Of a DNA stretch of 17,539 bases, positions 3,792 through 10,373 are shown piece by piece (the stretch's first letter is position 1; each line of letters begins with the position of its first letter). The position numbers and the translations under genes are program-made. The notes under the pieces are model-generated. The model made no database searches, had not been told where the DNA came from, and was given only the letters and a program-made list of their open reading frames with translations. Source of the stretch: an uncultured archaeon (GTDB lineage Archaea; Asgardarchaeota; Lokiarchaeia; Sigyniarchaeales; SOKP01); assembly GCA_964493715.1 (NCBI GenBank), contig CAZBPC010000069.1, forward strand, positions 1 to 17,539. The letters are read 5' to 3'.

Positions 3792-3797
3792 AGGTGA
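3792..3797 (+). promoter_or_regulatory. Possible Shine-Dalgarno site (AGGTGA) for an in-frame TTG start at 3806
   Basis: AGGTGA matches part of the archaeal GGAGGTGA consensus and lies 8 nt before an in-frame TTG. Confidence 0.35.
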
Positions 3798-4780
3798 AAT
3801 TATTTTTGGAAATTCAATATTTATCAAAAGGAAAACAGCCAGAAAGACAAGATAAAGAAGAACCACATAAAATTCTCTTTACTGGTTTAGATACAGCAGG
3901 TAAAAGTACAATCATACTTGCAATTCAAAGAGAATTCTCAAAAATCGCGCTACTTAAACCCACTCGAGGTGCTCAACGCAGAATTTTTGAGTTTTTAGGA
4001 AAAGATATAGCAGAATGGGATCTAGGGGGTCAAATTTCATATAGAATTTCTTATCTTAAAAATCCAGGTAAATATTTTGATGGTACGGAAATTTTAATTT
4101 ACGTTGTTGACATACAAAACCAAGCAAGGATTCCTGAGGCAATAAGCTATTTAGAAGATGTTATAACGCAATTTAATAACCTTGAAATTAAACCACCTAT
4201 CTATGTCTTTTTCCATAAATGTGATCCCGCTCTCTTAAGGAATGCCATCAATGAAATGCAAACGATGAGAGTAGAATTAAAAGAGAAAATCAAGAATGCA
4301 GCTAACTATAAACAGCTCTATTTCTATGATACGTCAATATATAATCTTCCTAGTATAATTAAAGCAATGTCCGAAATTTTACTAAATTTATATCCTAAAT
4401 CTGAATTAATTGAGAAAACAATTAATGAGTTTGCTAGAAAAGTAGATTCTGAAGGAGTTGTCATGATTGATGATAATTCTTTAATCGTGGGAAGTTTCTA
4501 TAAGAATGAAGAAGTCAAAAATCTATTATCTGCATCTACTCCCTATTTTCTCACATTAAATGATAGCTTCCAATTCACTCAAATCCCCTTACCAGGGAAG
4601 GAACAAGAAGAAAATAACATGGTAGTTCAAAGATTTGGCCGAAACTTTGTATTTAAGCAAATTAAGCTAAAAGAAGGCAGTCCACCTTATTATTTAATAA
4701 TGTTAAAACAAGATCCTACCTTAAACGAGGAAGATTTTGATTCATTCGCTAATCTTCTCAAAGAAATTTTAAAGAATTAA
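3794..4780 (+). CDS. Rag/Gtr-like (Arf-related) small GTPase with C-terminal roadblock domain
   Basis: G1 GLDTAGKS, G2 PTRG, G3 WDLGGQ, G4 HKCD (His as in Rag HKxD), G5 TSIY. Followed by a helix-P-helix-strand segment (KAMSEILLNLYPKSELIEKTINEFARKVDSEGVVMID) resembling the start of the Rag C-terminal domain. The true start may be TTG at 3806 behind an AGGTGA SD-like site. Confidence 0.85.
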   Translation: MKLFLEIQYLSKGKQPERQDKEEPHKILFTGLDTAGKSTIILAIQREFSKIALLKPTRGAQRRIFEFLGKDIAEWDLGGQISYRISYLKNPGKYFDGTEILIYVVDIQNQARIPEAISYLEDVITQFNNLEIKPPIYVFFHKCDPALLRNAINEMQTMRVELKEKIKNAANYKQLYFYDTSIYNLPSIIKAMSEILLNLYPKSELIEKTINEFARKVDSEGVVMIDDNSLIVGSFYKNEEVKNLLSASTPYFLTLNDSFQFTQIPLPGKEQEENNMVVQRFGRNFVFKQIKLKEGSPPYYLIMLKQDPTLNEEDFDSFANLLKEILKN

Positions 4781-4929: not shown

Positions 4930-5931
4930 TTGATTATATGTAGTAATTGTGGCGCAACAAACAATGAAGCTAAAGGTCATATCTGTCGTAAATGTGGTGC
5001 CTTGTTACCAGTTACGACTAAACCTCCTCGTGTTAGAATTGAAACGAAAAAGCAACCAGTAAAAAAAGTTAGACAAACTCCATCGAAACCTCAAATTAAA
5101 CCTCAAGAGAAATCCATAAAACAACCAAAATCATTTGAGCTTCAAGAAATACCCAAAGTGAAGGTATTGCCAAGTAATGAACCCAAAGTCGAAGATAATT
5201 CAAGTGAAACTGAATCAGAAGAGTATTTCGATGATTTTAGTAAAGAAGAGGAAGAAGAGGAAATTGAAAGAGTAACATTAAAAGAAATCACTCCTGGCCC
5301 TTTCAAAGGCTCAATTATAGCACAAAAAAATGTGTATGGGGGAAATATAAAATCAAAAATAGAAAAACCAGACCATTCAATGAAATCAGCTAAATTGGAT
5401 GAAAATACTCTAAGTAAAGATTCTTTCATCCGTCAAAAACAGTTAGAACAAGATATGTCGAAAGTTTTGAAATTCCTCTCTGAAAAAATTAGCGTTAAAG
5501 GATTACCAAGGGATAAACCAGAAGAAAAAAGAGAAGTCAAGAAAGAAAAAGAATCGATACCACCAGCGAGCATGAACGAGATTCTAAGAAATCTCTTAAA
5601 AATTGATTTAAATATTGAAGCATCAGCAATTATTAAATCAGAAGGAACAATTCTTGCATCTGCGATCTCATCGCGCATATCTGATACACTTTTTGGTGTA
5701 ATCGGTCAAAATTTATATATGATTGGAAAAGATATTATAGAAGGATTAAATGCAGGTAAATTACAGAATATATCTGTTAGAGGGAGTGGAGGAGTATTAG
5801 ATTTAGCCCCTATTTCTCAAGATATGCTTTTAATTTTATTTTCTAACCCTCGAATAAAAAGTGGCATTATTTATTTTGCCGCTAGTATCGTAAAGAAACA
5901 AGTAAAACAATATTTGGGATTAAACGATTAA
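4930..5931 (+). CDS. Zinc-ribbon + low-complexity linker + roadblock/LAMTOR/MglB domain protein
   Basis: N-terminal CSNC...CRKCG, then a Pro/Lys-rich and Glu-rich linker. The last ~120 aa follow the roadblock pattern: ILRNLL..NIEASAIIKSEGTILAS, a helix, LNAGKLQNISVRGSGG, MLLILFS..IKSGIIYF. TTG start. Confidence 0.85.
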   Translation: MIICSNCGATNNEAKGHICRKCGALLPVTTKPPRVRIETKKQPVKKVRQTPSKPQIKPQEKSIKQPKSFELQEIPKVKVLPSNEPKVEDNSSETESEEYFDDFSKEEEEEEIERVTLKEITPGPFKGSIIAQKNVYGGNIKSKIEKPDHSMKSAKLDENTLSKDSFIRQKQLEQDMSKVLKFLSEKISVKGLPRDKPEEKREVKKEKESIPPASMNEILRNLLKIDLNIEASAIIKSEGTILASAISSRISDTLFGVIGQNLYMIGKDIIEGLNAGKLQNISVRGSGGVLDLAPISQDMLLILFSNPRIKSGIIYFAASIVKKQVKQYLGLND

Positions 5932-6738
5932 TGAATAAAAGTCTGACAATTGTTTTTGTATGAATAATTTATTAATTTTAATTGTTTTAAAATATGACAA
6001 GTTTGTTGTTAATTCTTGTAAAAACGAATTAAGTTGATAAATAGAAACCAGAGGTATGTTATTTTCATTAAATTTAATATGATTTTGTTCAAGACTTACC
6101 ATTACAGGGACTAAAACAAATGGAAACCTTTTTTCAATACTTTCTGAAGTTCCTAAAATATTTTGAACCATATCAGAAAAAATTTCTGGATTTAACTGTA
6201 ATGCAAGTGCCCGTTGATATTGATGATTTGCAGCTTTATTCATCGCGGAAAAAGAATCTTTATTCACCCACTGTTTGGCATCAAGTATTAAAATATAATG
6301 TTTAGATATTCCAACTACATCAATTTCGTATCTTTTTTGAGATGTTTTTATTTTATAATTCGAGCGATCAGAGAATCTAAAGTTTTTAGTTGTTTTGTAA
6401 TTATTCCTATTAAGAATTTCCTCAACTAATGCTTCAAATCCATTAAAATCAACCAATATTGACAATTTTACAATATCTTCTTCTAAATATCGAATACTTT
6501 CAACAATAAATTTGATTTTGTCTATTACTATGTAATTTTTATAATTCCCTTTTTGAATACAAATGGATTTAAAATTGAGTAAATATCCTCTAATCTCGGA
6601 TTCATCATTACCTTTAAAAAAATGTACCTCTGAAATTCCAACCCATACTTCCGTCACTTTAGTATCCGTTCCTTTCAAGATTTTATATATTTCTGAAAAA
6701 AATTGTTTTATGGTCTTTATAGATAACGATAGTTTCAT
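5920..6738 (-). CDS. PD-(D/E)XK restriction-endonuclease-like protein (Mrr/NERD-like)
   Basis: FEALVEEIL...YEIDVVG...LILDAKQW gives the E..D..(D/E)xK catalytic pattern. Its 3' end overlaps the convergent roadblock gene by 12 nt. Confidence 0.75.
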   Translation of the reverse strand: MKLSLSIKTIKQFFSEIYKILKGTDTKVTEVWVGISEVHFFKGNDESEIRGYLLNFKSICIQKGNYKNYIVIDKIKFIVESIRYLEEDIVKLSILVDFNGFEALVEEILNRNNYKTTKNFRFSDRSNYKIKTSQKRYEIDVVGISKHYILILDAKQWVNKDSFSAMNKAANHQYQRALALQLNPEIFSDMVQNILGTSESIEKRFPFVLVPVMVSLEQNHIKFNENNIPLVSIYQLNSFLQELTTNLSYFKTIKINKLFIQKQLSDFYSLIV

Positions 6739-6949
6739 AGTATTTATTCTATCATTACCATAAAATAAGAAAGGGAGGGTAAAAATTAAATGAAAAATCG
6801 AGGAAATTTACTATTATTCTCAATAAATTAGATGAAAATCTACATATCATCATATTCTAAACACTAACTAGTTCATTAATAATTTTCTTTTTTAATGTAG
6901 ATAAATATAATACTTCAGAAATAAATGAATTAAAGAGAATTATTATAAA

Positions 6950-8740
6950 ATGAATCTTCTACCAAGAGTATTCAAGAAGGGGGATGTTGAAGAATTTGAA
7001 CCCTCTAAAATAATGGACAGCATTATTCAAGAAACAGGTGTGGATGAAGAAAATGCTAGAAAAATCACGGAACTTGTTGTTAGAAGAATCATTAGCTCTA
7101 ACATGAAATTTTTATCCGGACCTCATATTAGAGAAATTGTCTGTTCAATACTTTCAGAAAATCAATACGAGCAAGAACGAAAACTTTACACTCGTATTGG
7201 AATGCCTTTAATGGACTATGAAAAAATCCTTGAAGTCAGTCAAAATAATTCATCAGAGAGAATTATTAATCCAGAAAAGATCCATCATTGGGCTGCCAAT
7301 CAACTAGCGGAAGAGTATACCCTTCTCCGAATACTTAATGATGAAGAATCAAAAGCACACTTGTTTGGTGATTTATATATTCATCAGCTTAAATATTTCG
7401 ACTTACGACCTTATAATCAGTATTGGGATCCTCGATTAATTCTAGTACATGGATTACCACCAATTAAAAACTATAATTTGACTTGTAAGTCAAAACCAGC
7501 AAAAAATTTAAGAGAAGCCGTTGATCAGCTTGCTAATTGGTTAGGAATGGTACAGACAGAATTCAGTGGTAATCAAGGACTTGAATTTATCACAGTATTT
7601 CTTGCCCCCTATATTCAAGGATTAAGTGACTACGAAATAAAAGAAATAATGAAACGATTTATTTTCAGCATAAATTATTTATCGACTTCTTCAGGGAAAA
7701 ATTATTTAAAGTCTTCTCTTTCATGTTCGACTGGAATTATACCTGCATTGTTAGATGAACCCGCAATTGGTCCGGGTGGGAGTAAACTAGGTAATTATGA
7801 TTCTTATAAAAAAGAAAACACAAAATTATTTGATATAATAACGCAAATTTACACTGAGGGTGATGATAATAATTGTTATTTCCCTTATCCTGAGCATCTA
7901 ATTTATTTTAACGAGAAATGGTTAGCTGAGTTTAAAGAACAATATGAATCAATCTGTAAAGAAGTGTTAAAATATCAAACTCCTAGTTTTATTAATATCA
8001 ATCGGCATAAAATACTTAATAAAATGATGCAGACGTTGCCAAATTCCTATCTCAATCATGGGGTTCTTCAAAAGATATCGTTAAATTTACCTCGATATGC
8101 CTTTTCCAATCAAGACGAAACTAAATTTCTTGAATTTCTAAAAACCAAATTAGAGACTTGTTTTGAAATTTTAGATAAGAAGTATACTATTATAGGACAA
8201 CGATTAAAAACGGGTCATTTACCATTATGTAGTGGTTGGTTAGAGAATCATCAATTATTTAATCTTGAAAACCAAGAATTATGTATTGGATTTGTCGGAT
8301 TAAATGAAGCTGTTAAAATCTTGACAAATTCTGAATTACAAGAAACAGACACGGCATTAAAATTAGGAGAAAAAATAGTGAAACAAATGTATGATTATTG
8401 TGAAGAGCGATCCAAGAATAATGGAAAACATTATTCTTTAATTAACTCTTCATCTAAAGGAGCAATTATGCGATTTTTACGTCTGGATTCAAAACACTTT
8501 CCCAAATTAGCTCAAGAAAATTATCAAAAATCTTCCCATTTTAGAGATATAGATACTCTTGAATTAATCGACAGGATTAAAAAACAAGGTAGATTTCATC
8601 CATGGATTTTAAATGATGCAATAGTGGAAATTTCGTTGAGGCATCATAAAGAAAATCTACAAAATCCAGAAGATTTAATGAAAATTTTATCCTATAGTTG
8701 TACAAGCACTGAAATCTTTAGCCTAAAATTTCTCTCTTGA
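6950..8740 (+). CDS. Class III (anaerobic) ribonucleotide reductase NrdD-like protein with ATP cone; predicted catalytically inactive and C-terminally truncated
   Basis: ATP cone (RVFKKGDVEEFEPSKI...LSGPHIREIV), YTRIGMP, AHLFGDLYIH, KPAKN, FSGNQG, FLAPY, SLNLPR, IGFVGLNEAV and GRFHP all match NrdD. No Cys at the RPxC/NC site, no xCR finger loop, and no C-terminal CxxC or RxxGY. Confidence 0.85.
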   Translation: MNLLPRVFKKGDVEEFEPSKIMDSIIQETGVDEENARKITELVVRRIISSNMKFLSGPHIREIVCSILSENQYEQERKLYTRIGMPLMDYEKILEVSQNNSSERIINPEKIHHWAANQLAEEYTLLRILNDEESKAHLFGDLYIHQLKYFDLRPYNQYWDPRLILVHGLPPIKNYNLTCKSKPAKNLREAVDQLANWLGMVQTEFSGNQGLEFITVFLAPYIQGLSDYEIKEIMKRFIFSINYLSTSSGKNYLKSSLSCSTGIIPALLDEPAIGPGGSKLGNYDSYKKENTKLFDIITQIYTEGDDNNCYFPYPEHLIYFNEKWLAEFKEQYESICKEVLKYQTPSFININRHKILNKMMQTLPNSYLNHGVLQKISLNLPRYAFSNQDETKFLEFLKTKLETCFEILDKKYTIIGQRLKTGHLPLCSGWLENHQLFNLENQELCIGFVGLNEAVKILTNSELQETDTALKLGEKIVKQMYDYCEERSKNNGKHYSLINSSSKGAIMRFLRLDSKHFPKLAQENYQKSSHFRDIDTLELIDRIKKQGRFHPWILNDAIVEISLRHHKENLQNPEDLMKILSYSCTSTEIFSLKFLS

Positions 8741-8960
8741 ATTTGAATGAATAATTAACCATTTCAAAATATATTCAATAAATTAAGCTTAACAAATATT
8801 TAATAATAGGTTCTGCTATTATAAATAAAAAGTTAACACATACTTTTATAGGATTACTGAGAGAATCATTAGATAATTTGGCACGAGATTTAAGGAGTCT
8901 TTCTAATCACTATATCTTAATTGCACTCATCTCTTACATTTATGCTAAGGTTTAGATAAT

Positions 8961-10373
8961 ATGATCGACCAAAAACCGGAAATTATAAAGGCAGTTGTAT
9001 TCAGTATTTTTGATGAAGATGGTCCAACACCAAAAATCTATTGGCCTAGAGACATGGAAGAATCAGCCAGATTGCTTATTGCCATGAAGACTATATCAAT
9101 TTTAATGGGAGATGCAATTTACCAAGATGGCTCATCTACCAGTGAAATTAACTATTTTGGAATTTTACCTTTCCCAGATCTGAAATTAAATGGTCTAACA
9201 TACTTTTTTTTAATACCTGATTCTCAAGCACGTGGTAATGCCAAAGCTTCTACAATAACAATATTGATTGATGAATCTAATCGAGTATTTTTCTATGAAA
9301 ATATGAAATATCTCCGAATAATTGTAGATAAGGCTGCATCTAAAATCCAGGTAACAAAGGATTTTAATGAAATAGAGAAAATTGTTGAAAGTTTGAAGGA
9401 AGAACTTATAGAATTTACAAAAGATTTAGGAGATATTTTATCAACTAAACGCCAACTAAAGATTCTATTCACGGGGATTGATGGAGCAGGAAAAACTAGC
9501 TTTCTTTTGGGAGTTAAAAAAAGATATTCGGAAATTATTAAGGTTTTACCAACAAAGGGTGTTTCTAGATCACAAGAACACATATTTGAGCAGCAGAACT
9601 CACAGATTTCAATATGGGATTTGGCAGGTCAGAAATCATATCGTGATAAATTTATCGAAGAAAGCAAATTTTATTTATATAATATTGATTTAATGTTTTA
9701 TTTTATTGATATTCAAGATGAAGAAAGGATTGAGGAATCTCTTAAATTATATAAAGAAATAATTTATAACTTAAAGGAGTTAAATGAGTTTCCCTCAATA
9801 ATTATTTGCTTAAATAAACATGATCCTGACTTAAAAGACACCAAACCAATGAGAAAAAGAATAAAAAACGTTACTATTGATATAGAAAAACAATCTGAGG
9901 GATTTTTCTTCAAGATTTTTTACACATCTATATTTGATCACTGGTCCTTGATTTCAGCATATAGTTTTGGTCTTAGTCAACTGAGTCCAAATCGTGAATT
10001 ATTTGTAAACCAATTAAAGCAGTTTGCAATGAATACAAATTCGGAAGCAATTTTGCTACTCAATGATAATGGCATTATATTATCCAGTTATTCAAAATCT
10101 GAGATTTCCGATACAGTGTTTGAAATATCCGCTCCACATTATCAAACATTATTTAAGACGTTTAAAGAGTTTAAGTTATTGAAAAAAGATTATCTCATAT
10201 CATCTGGAATTACTGAGGATTCAAAAAGCATGATTTTTAAGCGGATAATTGTCGATCAATATAATCTTTATCTCCTATTATACGTAGAAGAAGAACAAGG
10301 GATAAAAAAAGTAGAAAAAAATTTATCTGATTTTGTTAAAAATATAAAAGATTTGATTAAAAACTATATTTGA
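8961..10373 (+). CDS. Fusion: uDENN/longin (folliculin/SMCR8-like) + Rag-like small GTPase + roadblock-like C-terminal domain
   Basis: N-terminus has VVFSIFDEDGPTP..YWP and YFFLIPDSQARGNAKASTITILID. GTPase motifs: G1 GIDGAGKT (aa 172-179), PTKG, WDLAGQ, NKHD, TSIFD. C-terminal SAYSFGLSQLSPNRELFVNQLKQFA...EAILLLNDNGIILSSY. Confidence 0.85.
   Translation: MIDQKPEIIKAVVFSIFDEDGPTPKIYWPRDMEESARLLIAMKTISILMGDAIYQDGSSTSEINYFGILPFPDLKLNGLTYFFLIPDSQARGNAKASTITILIDESNRVFFYENMKYLRIIVDKAASKIQVTKDFNEIEKIVESLKEELIEFTKDLGDILSTKRQLKILFTGIDGAGKTSFLLGVKKRYSEIIKVLPTKGVSRSQEHIFEQQNSQISIWDLAGQKSYRDKFIEESKFYLYNIDLMFYFIDIQDEERIEESLKLYKEIIYNLKELNEFPSIIICLNKHDPDLKDTKPMRKRIKNVTIDIEKQSEGFFFKIFYTSIFDHWSLISAYSFGLSQLSPNRELFVNQLKQFAMNTNSEAILLLNDNGIILSSYSKSEISDTVFEISAPHYQTLFKTFKEFKLLKKDYLISSGITEDSKSMIFKRIIVDQYNLYLLLYVEEEQGIKKVEKNLSDFVKNIKDLIKNYI

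Follow-up and report, generated by a model that had tools for sequence, protein, structure and literature searches.

The window analysed here is a 17,539-nt stretch of DNA from an uncultured archaeon of the Lokiarchaeia (GenBank assembly GCA_964493715.1, contig CAZBPC010000069.1), with a G+C content of about 30%. Positions 6950–8740 on its forward strand hold a gene for a 596-aa protein, P0001, which starts with ATG, ends with a TGA stop codon at 8738–8740 and belongs to the family of NrdD, the class III ribonucleotide reductase (RNR). Judged by its sequence, P0001 is a paralogue of the class III RNR encoded in the same genome but is itself non-catalytic, and its gene is called pseudo-nrdD below. 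An earlier reading of this DNA, made from the letters alone (the sequence-only reading), had described the frame as uninterrupted for 596 aa, and rereading of the open reading frame (ORF) list and translation agrees with this. The contigs from four other salt-marsh DNA runs differ over the ORF by substitutions only; the one indel in them lies at 8757, past the stop codon, which a contig of an independent run crosses unchanged. The 220 bases from the stop codon to the next gene hold a continuation of the protein in none of the frames.

P0001 matches the Pfam family NRDD (PF13597) with 232.1 bits (E 1.7e-68), but only over model positions 7–495 of 562, positions 496–562 being unmatched. With the NCBIfam NrdD equivalog TIGR02487 it reaches 212.9 bits, under the cut-off of 326.35, compared with 447.6 bits for the canonical NrdD of the same genome (P0003). 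A weak secondary Pfam match to the YjjI-like enzymes (PF11230, 26.6 bits, aa 373–491) stands under the far stronger NRDD match, and unlike P0001, YjjI keeps its glycyl-radical domain.

The assembly (3.68 Mb, 160 contigs, rated 100% complete) contains three matches to the NRDD family. P0003 is the product of a full-length gene on contig C34 (711 aa, 472 bits, model positions 1–560), P0001 is encoded on contig C69 (596 aa, 232 bits) and P0004 on contig C3 (658 aa, 54 bits, very divergent). P0001 and P0003 are 50% identical, and P0003 is the closest full-length relative. P0001 descends from the NrdD of this Lokiarchaeial lineage. Since no class I/II large subunit (PF02867) was matched in the genome, P0003 is its sole recognisable working RNR. 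As the sequence-only reading had stated, the window carries no nrdG: none of its 16 larger ORFs has a radical-SAM or NrdG match. In the whole genome, too, no match reached the cut-offs of TIGR02495 (best 44.8 vs. 131.15) or TIGR02491 (best 35.7 vs. 126.1), and therefore no gene could be assigned as the activase of the canonical NrdD. Several PflA-like glycyl-radical activases are encoded on contigs C7, C82 and C33 (L064, L068, and L062), one of them adjoining a gene for a pyruvate formate-lyase-like glycyl-radical enzyme.

The catalytic motifs were compared by aligning P0001 to P0003, and then to 95 short and 20 canonical proteins of the family. The short forms are the 95 proteins of 549–625 aa among the best 120 of 619 matches (E ≤ 1e-20) in a word-indexed search; these 120 and P0003 were aligned with P0001 (121 sequences). 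In the motif RPYNQYWD (aa 153–160, nt 7406–7429), noted earlier as having no Cys, N156 (codon 7415–7417) stands opposite the β-A active-site Cys of P0003 (RPFCQEW). This Cys is present in 20/20 canonical proteins and 92.6% conserved across class III (PMC9669993). Just three of the 95 short forms retain it and 92 do not, the position being occupied by S (48), N (21), E (16), T (4) and others. In the same alignments SGGQ has become SGNQ (aa 206–209, nt 7565–7576), and AARGGQV of P0003 is replaced by TSSGKNY (aa 246–252, nt 7685–7705), which fits the earlier reading of SSGKN for RGGQ. The AARGGQV motif is probably loop 2, which in NrdD has a role in coupling the two monomers (PMC11226230).

The finger loop is replaced by a short linker of 21 residues with no Cys (aa 350–370, nt 7997–8059) between TPSFIN (aa 344–349) and GVLQKISLNLPR (aa 371–382). 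The sequence-only reading was right that this region is short and Cys-free, but its range of about 7982–8060 has to be corrected to the one given here. The deletion removes 25–26 residues that P0003 keeps, including SQCCRKF. The segment T344–I376 measures 33–34 residues in 88/95 short forms, as opposed to 59 residues in 20/20 canonical proteins, and the finger-loop CC is found in all 20 of the latter and missing in 95/95 short forms. Further along, the triphosphate-binding loop (T/Q)P(A/S)ES, EQPSES in P0003, is replaced by NSSSK (aa 499–503, nt 8444–8458), the change that had been read as TPAES to NSSSK. The stop codon follows the last barrel strand, so that both the Zn ribbon and the glycyl-radical domain are absent from P0001, while P0003 runs on past this point through CPSC...CPKC (Zn ribbon) and RVTGYY (glycyl motif). 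All 95 short forms have the same end and are missing both elements, in line with the earlier statement that the protein stops before the Zn-binding CxxC and RxxGY.

One further loss had escaped the sequence-only reading. In NrdD the NxN active-site flap makes contact with the substrate and is highly conserved (PMC11226230; PMC12662201), and P0001 has a degenerate connector at its position (VSQNNSSERII, aa 96–106, nt 7235–7267), with NNSSERI opposite NENANQD of P0003. An N-x-N flap is found in 1/95 short vs. 20/20 canonical proteins, and the mean pairwise identity of the remnant is 0.26 within the short forms, 0.86 within the canonical clade and 0.10 between them. The motif losses listed in the sequence-only reading all stand, but some active-site residues are still kept in the short forms: H145 of the HxHD triphosphate motif (92/95), N379 (95/95), and E453 (94/95). 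R382 of the barrel is nearly invariant as well.

Of the findings that the sequence-only reading had named as counting against it, neither an active-site Cys nor a separately encoded radical peptide was seen. No Cys is conserved at either catalytic position. C336 had been a candidate for the radical Cys, as phmmer placed it on Cys330 of the Thermotoga maritima NrdD, but this is a misalignment: the P0003 alignment disagrees, and C336 is not conserved in the family. Mapping of the specificity-site residues Gln161 and Gln218 of T. maritima to P0001 was likewise dropped, as the phmmer alignment is too weak there and the canonical enzyme of the lineage differs as well. A tblastn search of the genome with the C-terminal domain and finger loop of P0003 gave only P0003's own gene on C34; no separate NrdD-type glycyl-radical peptide was thus found in the genome, and a radical domain does not appear to be supplied in trans. 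Tn7-like elements use nrdD as an attachment site, where they insert outside the gene (bioRxiv 10.1101/2025.07.27.667033). Truncation by such an element was considered and rejected, because the window contains no transposition genes and the insertions fall outside the gene. On these alignments P0001 has lost all the parts by which an NrdD generates, holds and uses its radical and positions the substrate, and radical nucleotide reduction by the known mechanism would be impossible for it. We infer that P0001 no longer reduces nucleotides.

The short forms constitute one clade, sister to the canonical clade of ~705–715 aa, with an SH-like support of 100 (FastTree, 129 rows including eight outgroup NrdDs). 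The same topology was obtained with IQ-TREE (LG+C20) on a subset of 55 rows, where the SH-like approximate likelihood ratio test (SH-aLRT) gave 100. The branches of the short clade are much longer than the canonical ones, and its members go down to about 45% mutual identity with the same length and end. The sample of the phylum comprised 299 genomes, all of them assemblies of metagenome-assembled genome (MAG) quality; tallies were read by hand from the matches listed, and absence means not found in the genomes searched. Frames of ~596–640 aa covering the full query occurred in 37 of the 66 genomes of the window's own Lokiarchaeial family (f1) and in none of the other 233. By genus, the 37 holders fall into 15 (g1), 19 (g2), 2 (g6) and 1 (g8). 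A canonical-type NrdD match co-occurs in 37/37 of them, although in six (G298, G217, G153, G241, G274, and G104) the match is fragmentary, with an intein or at a contig end. In about 21 of the f1 genomes sampled, only the canonical gene was seen.

Where source names are given for the short forms, they are mostly "anaerobic ribonucleoside-triphosphate reductase", from MAGs of Promethearchaeota, Lokiarchaeota, Hodarchaeota and Hermodarchaeota; P0027 is a "hypothetical protein", and most members are nameless. Searches of the main text of papers turned up neither a catalytically dead class III RNR nor RNR genes beside Asgard Rag GTPases. Such a family goes unmentioned in the passages of PMC9669993 that were consulted, and keyword searches in PMC3019208 were empty.

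Selection on the gene was estimated as the ratio of nonsynonymous to synonymous substitutions (dN/dS), using a Nei-Gojobori script written for this analysis. P0001 gave 0.21 against two congeners (83–85% aa identity), compared with 0.07–0.27 for nine neighbouring genes and 0.11 for the canonical NrdD of the same genome pair. The ratio rises along the protein from 0.035 (aa 1–95, the cone) and 0.05–0.08 (aa 96–135) to 0.21–0.22 (aa 136–350), 0.28–0.30 (aa 351–480) and 0.39–0.41 (aa 481–596). Purifying selection acts on P0001 and is strongest on three parts, namely the cone, the TRIGMPLMDYE motif of the connector and the helices at the start of the core, which are as well conserved as their counterparts in the working enzyme and nearly identical to them. 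Mean pairwise identities show the same gradient. They are 0.80 within the short forms, 0.83 within the canonical clade and 0.75 between the two for the cone; 0.83, 0.92, and 0.70 for aa 107–155; and 0.39–0.50, 0.80–0.87, and 0.34–0.46 for the barrel. The cone is thus the best-preserved region, as the sequence-only reading had suspected. Its likeness to the P0003 cone reflects constraint rather than gene conversion, since synonymous sites between the two are saturated (proportion of synonymous differences 0.83). The first core helices and strand (aa 107–155, nt 7268–7414) are near-identical to canonical NrdD and are provisionally equated with the NrdD dimer-interface helices.

The ATP cone is assigned to aa 1–95 (nt 6950–7234). 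PF03477 scores just under its cut-off on P0001 itself, and it was matched at E ≤ 0.01 by 19 of 21 aligned N-terminal modules of the family. Eight cone residues (H59, R61, E62, R77, K78, Y80, T81, and R82) are invariant in 95/95 short and 20/20 canonical proteins, and I21 is kept in 93/95 short forms. Ligand contacts of the cone have been described for StNrdD and Escherichia coli NrdA (PMC12662201), and the positions kept in P0001 (the hairpin K/R, I21 in helix 1, H59 in helix 3 and R77/K78/Y80 in helix 4) appear to be ligand-contact positions, by a mapping that is partly inferred.

The AlphaFold2 model of P0001, for which 64 family members were used, reaches a mean predicted local distance difference test (pLDDT) score of 86 and a predicted template-modelling score of 0.79. 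The pLDDT is above 90 for most of the barrel, 63–88 for the cone and about 50–60 for the connector. The modelled cone is a β-hairpin followed by four helices (strands 6–9 and 12–15; helices 19–29, 33–50, 57–70, and 74–80), and a short helix (354–362) is seen in the linker that replaces the finger loop. The top Foldseek matches in the PDB are the NrdDs of S. thermophilus, P. copri, T. maritima and T4 (E 1e-24 to 1e-16, template-modelling scores 0.63–0.71), and the N-terminus of the model weakly matches NrdR chains (E 0.0045–0.013). The alignments with StNrdD and PcNrdD, which both bear a cone, extend over the entire model. The model shows that P0001 is predicted to keep the NrdD barrel fold. 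Its modelled N-terminus is a cone homologous to the characterised RNR cones and orthologous to that of P0003 (~75% identity).

The neighbourhood of pseudo-nrdD is rich in GTPase genes of the Rag type, all on the forward strand. Directly downstream lies the gene for P0002 (8961–10373, 470 aa), a longin/folliculin-like and Gtr1/RagA GTPase fusion (Gtr1_RagA 83.2 bits; Folliculin 19.8 bits, below the cut-off). Upstream are a RagA-like GTPase of 328 aa (3794–4780), a 333-aa protein without family assignment (4930–5931) and a divergent NERD-like gene. Relatives carry another ~500-aa paralogue of the longin-RagA fusion a few kb away. Among 29 short-form loci from 28 genomes that were read for context, all with intact reading frames, the P0002 orthologue is directly downstream on the same strand in 27, and the other two end at a contig edge. 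The adjacency to the GTPase gene is therefore kept in 27/27 assessable loci. However, gene order is the same throughout the family over all of the ~17-kb block, including a threonine synthase, an L13e-like gene and a methyltransferase, so that adjacency alone is weak evidence of a functional link.

In four genomes the slot of pseudo-nrdD, between the NERD-like and GTPase genes, instead holds an ORF of 145–160 aa (G259, G071, and G109 of g1 and G144 of g4; L092:3864-4346 (-), L093:2829-3302 (+), L094:3893-4339 (-), and L096:3980-4417 (+)). In three of them it points away from the GTPase gene, and in one the two genes stand in tandem. This ORF encodes an ATP cone, an NrdD-type connector (TR[IL]GFP...) and one helix, and is 36–45% identical to residues 2–126 of P0001. 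In G132 the GTPase gene is kept and the slot is empty. Similar mini-cone frames (135–173 aa) occur in many f1 genomes, and because they are found together with pseudo-NrdD in G187, G214 and G049, the two are not strict alternatives. The strong constraint on the cone of P0001 and the bare cone in the same slot lend indirect support to the idea that the protein may work as a sensor.

Upstream of pseudo-nrdD there is an AT-rich, promoter-like element (6872–6913, forward strand). A block of the form (G/A)TTAATAAT, a T-run and AAGTCTCTT...ATATTATAAT-like sequence was seen in about 19 of the 25 loci read, across genera. TTAATAA-like boxes precede both pseudo-nrdD and the canonical nrdD, and in a genome with 30% G+C they may simply be TATA boxes. 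A sigma-70 and terminator scan of 6650–9050, which is unsuited to archaea, found 15 promoters vs. 13.8 expected and no terminators. The 24 sequencing runs listed included no RNA run that holds the gene, which has no bearing on whether it is expressed.

Dead NrdDs are also found elsewhere in the phylum. Three g6 genomes, G141 (98% complete), G135 (99%) and G256 (82%), encode a 624-aa NrdD that keeps the β-A Cys (L052, L029, and L026, respectively). It shows SGSLG, is missing its finger loop and is cut short at the same point as P0001. These genes lie in the canonical nrdD locus, beside MazG-like, decarboxylase and cupin genes, with dN/dS of 0.16–0.24. In the tree they appear as sister of the short clade, but this placement is weak (SH-aLRT 80) and was set aside, since synteny puts them in the canonical locus; the truncation is for that reason read as a separate, convergent death. 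Neither a canonical NrdD nor a PF02867 match was found in the three genomes. In two genomes of the sister family f2, G162 (91% complete) and G232 (76%), the NrdD in the canonical locus is full-length (L097 and L098), but the β-A Cys and CC are gone and the radical Gly is changed to Asp or Asn (ratio of the proportions of nonsynonymous and synonymous differences, 0.20). No other RNR was found in these two genomes. Judged from their gene content, the five genomes whose sole NrdD is dead may lack de novo synthesis of deoxyribonucleoside triphosphates.

The third NRDD-family protein of the window's own genome, P0004 (L003:1420-3396 (-)), joins an NrdD barrel devoid of catalytic residues to a weak ATP cone and a winged helix of the DUF7347/ArsR-like kind. 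Proteins of ~770 aa that resemble P0004 are encoded in 16 of the sampled genomes, which belong to six further families of the phylum (P0172 and P0179 are both 766 aa). The architecture of winged helix, cone and dead barrel suggests a candidate archaeal NrdR-like, nucleotide-sensing transcription factor.

We consider it probable (roughly 60%) that P0001 is a non-catalytic, ATP/dATP-sensing regulator built on the NrdD scaffold, with the canonical NrdD or the Rag-like GTPases as possible partners. P0001 would have been retained for the allosteric half of NrdD. ATP or dATP would bind in the cone, the adenine-nucleotide state would change the conformation or oligomer state of the protein, and the partner would read this state through the cone or the conserved dimer-interface helices. 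Cone movement and oligomerisation have been described as mechanisms for real NrdDs (PMC11226230; PMC12662201).

Several points weigh against this interpretation. The barrel, too, is under purifying selection (0.2–0.4) and keeps H145, N379 and E453, and a sensor that needed only its cone leaves the retention of ~440 barrel residues unexplained. The conservation of the interface helices may result from folding constraint alone. Recognition of the cone is itself borderline: the PF03477 score, with a cut-off of 25.8, is 19.9 bits for full-length P0001 and 25.1 bits (E 2.7e-5) for aa 1–135, and with a profile of the module the StNrdD cone is found at no better than E 0.24. Throughout the lineage, the working NrdD included, Thr takes the place of the second basic hairpin residue of classical cones, or the residue is absent. 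Finally, the paralogue is dispensable, as about 21 f1 genomes do without it.

Both candidate partners had been proposed in the sequence-only reading. A narrower version of the sensor interpretation, possible but doubtful, is that P0001 pairs with P0003 through the interface helices or cone to cone, and that the asymmetric complex so formed, a heterodimer or a higher oligomer, adjusts activity or the inhibition by dATP. The cone and first core helices share one consensus in both paralogue clades, and such pairing would resemble the yeast Rnr4, a dead class I subunit that pairs with Rnr2. The P. copri NrdD dimer consists of one active and one inactive monomer, and its dATP-loaded cones associate (PMC11226230; PMC12662201); this half-of-sites working of NrdD dimers speaks for pairing. 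Co-occurrence with a canonical-type NrdD in all 37 holders (a fragment in six) agrees with pairing but is uninformative, because in most of these genomes no RNR other than the canonical NrdD was found. The two genes are unlinked (contigs C69 and C34), and loop 2, the coupler of the monomers, is degenerate in P0001. Moreover, the dead NrdDs of the g6 and f2 genomes persist under selection without a catalytic partner, and the scaffold therefore has a function in this order that does not depend on such a partner. That the cone instead reports ATP/dATP to P0002 and/or the RagA-like GTPase at 3794–4780 seems unlikely. The invariable position of the GTPase gene and the bare cones beside the same gene in four genomes speak for it, but with the block syntenic family-wide the adjacency is perhaps inherited order only. 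Pseudo-nrdD also has its own conserved upstream element and a spacer of 62–220 nt to the GTPase gene, G132 keeps the GTPase with an empty slot, and bare cones occur elsewhere in the genomes and alongside pseudo-NrdD. A complex prediction for the cone module (135 aa) and the longin-Rag GTPase (470 aa) scored 0.00, which is no evidence either way.

Other explanations do without a sensor as the core of the protein. The emptied barrel could carry a new function, such as a new ligand or non-radical catalysis, with the cone merely regulating it. This would account for a barrel dN/dS well away from 1, the near-invariance of its four residues, its confident prediction and the recurrence of truncation point and finger-loop deletion in the g6 lineage. 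We nevertheless hold it to be improbable, as barrel identity within the clade is only 0.39–0.50 with few clade-specific invariants, a cone-only protein can fill the slot and no new motif was recognised. A recently duplicated copy under neutral decay would fit the faster evolution relative to the canonical enzyme and the ~21 sampled family members without a copy. It is contradicted by 29/29 intact frames, by the dN/dS of 0.21 and by the constant length and end of one old clade despite identities down to ~45%, and is very hard to credit. Just as far-fetched is a P0001 that still works as a reductase with its radical domain supplied in trans. The genome does encode several PflA-like activases, but there is no thiyl-radical Cys, β-A Cys or NxN flap to be completed, and the C-terminal domain and finger loop were found only in the canonical gene. 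That P0001 is a repurposed pseudoenzyme and not a decaying copy, as the sequence-only reading had proposed, is on the other hand well supported by its single clade, the intact frames, the selection on it and the full-length nrdD elsewhere in the genome.

At its broadest, the Lokiarchaeial NrdD scaffold might read dATP/ATP in four forms (the paralogue, the enzyme that died in place in lineages where no working RNR was found, the winged-helix fusion of other Asgard families and the bare cone), which at this locus would feed the flanking longin/Rag GTPases as an archaeal forerunner of nutrient sensing upstream of Rag. We regard this as a speculative extension with little chance of being correct.

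Of the characterised proteins, the closest are the canonical double-cysteine (SCCR-type) class III NrdDs (T. maritima 4COI, P. copri 8P23, and S. thermophilus 9D3X). P0001 shares their ancestry, barrel fold, cone, connector and first helices, but lacks the glycyl-radical domain, Zn ribbon, finger-loop Cys, β-A Cys, NxN flap, loop 2 and triphosphate loop that they have. NrdR, a repressor of RNR genes, provides a functional likeness: it is not an enzyme and works through an ATP cone that senses ATP/dATP (PMC9110341; PMC12176259), which for P0001 is a prediction. In contrast to NrdR, P0001 has neither a Zn ribbon nor any other DNA-binding match in Pfam, starts with the cone hairpin and includes an entire NrdD barrel. 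The connector and helix that go with its cone are specific to NrdD, which shows that the cone comes from NrdD and not from NrdR.

De novo synthesis of DNA precursors depends on RNR alone, and the classic sensor of dATP/ATP is its ATP cone. Dead class I RNR members that are kept for partner binding or signalling include yeast Rnr4 (R2) and the R1 homologues of beta-herpesviruses; to our knowledge none of the dead subunits is class III and none is kept for its ATP cone. A conserved family that drops the chemistry but guards the sensor would mean that the allosteric half of RNR can be reused alone, a reuse set apart from both NrdR and the dead class I subunits. As most of the named short forms are labelled reductases, metabolic reconstructions of Asgard archaea can count a false RNR. 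If five genomes do have only a dead NrdD, they would depend on imported deoxynucleosides, which bears on the question of a syntrophic lifestyle. Because pseudo-nrdD lies within a cluster of Rag and longin GTPase genes, in those archaea that are closest to eukaryotes, a connection of nucleotide status with Rag-like signalling can be tested directly.

Partial losses were also noticed among metagenome proteins that belong to the canonical clade. The finger loop is deleted in four of them: P0078, P0079 and P0081, in which RETSYY stands for RVTGYY, and P0088, in which RVTGYY is kept and RPFYQEW is found at β-A. In P0108, WY takes the place of CC. Some canonical nrdD genes seem to carry an intein, with frames of 859–1687 aa in which the match is broken after about residue 156–168, the region of the β-A Cys (e.g., G165:C45, G241:C207, G265:C211, G274:C35, and G153:C44). 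A gene of 103–126 aa stands next to nrdD, live or dead (L001:1007-1387 (-) and its orthologues in L052, L026, L029, L090, L030, L027, L097, and L098), and is MazG-like by eye only.

More distant relatives show further combinations of cone and barrel. Among the best 150 representatives of clusters at 50% identity (P0124–P0273), 85 measure 480–900 aa; 32 of these are without the β-A Cys, finger Cys and Gly and 30 have all three, counts that come from an automatic MAFFT alignment at ~30% identity and need checking. In G236, which belongs to another family, an 806-aa protein (L078:977-3397 (-)) consists of an NrdR-type Zn ribbon, two ATP cones and an NrdD barrel. This barrel keeps the β-A Cys, the CC finger loop and the N-x-N flap, and ends after the first CxxC, before the glycyl motif. 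Frames of 809–850 aa are present in genomes related to G236, and two cones with a truncated barrel are also seen in P0150 and P0163.

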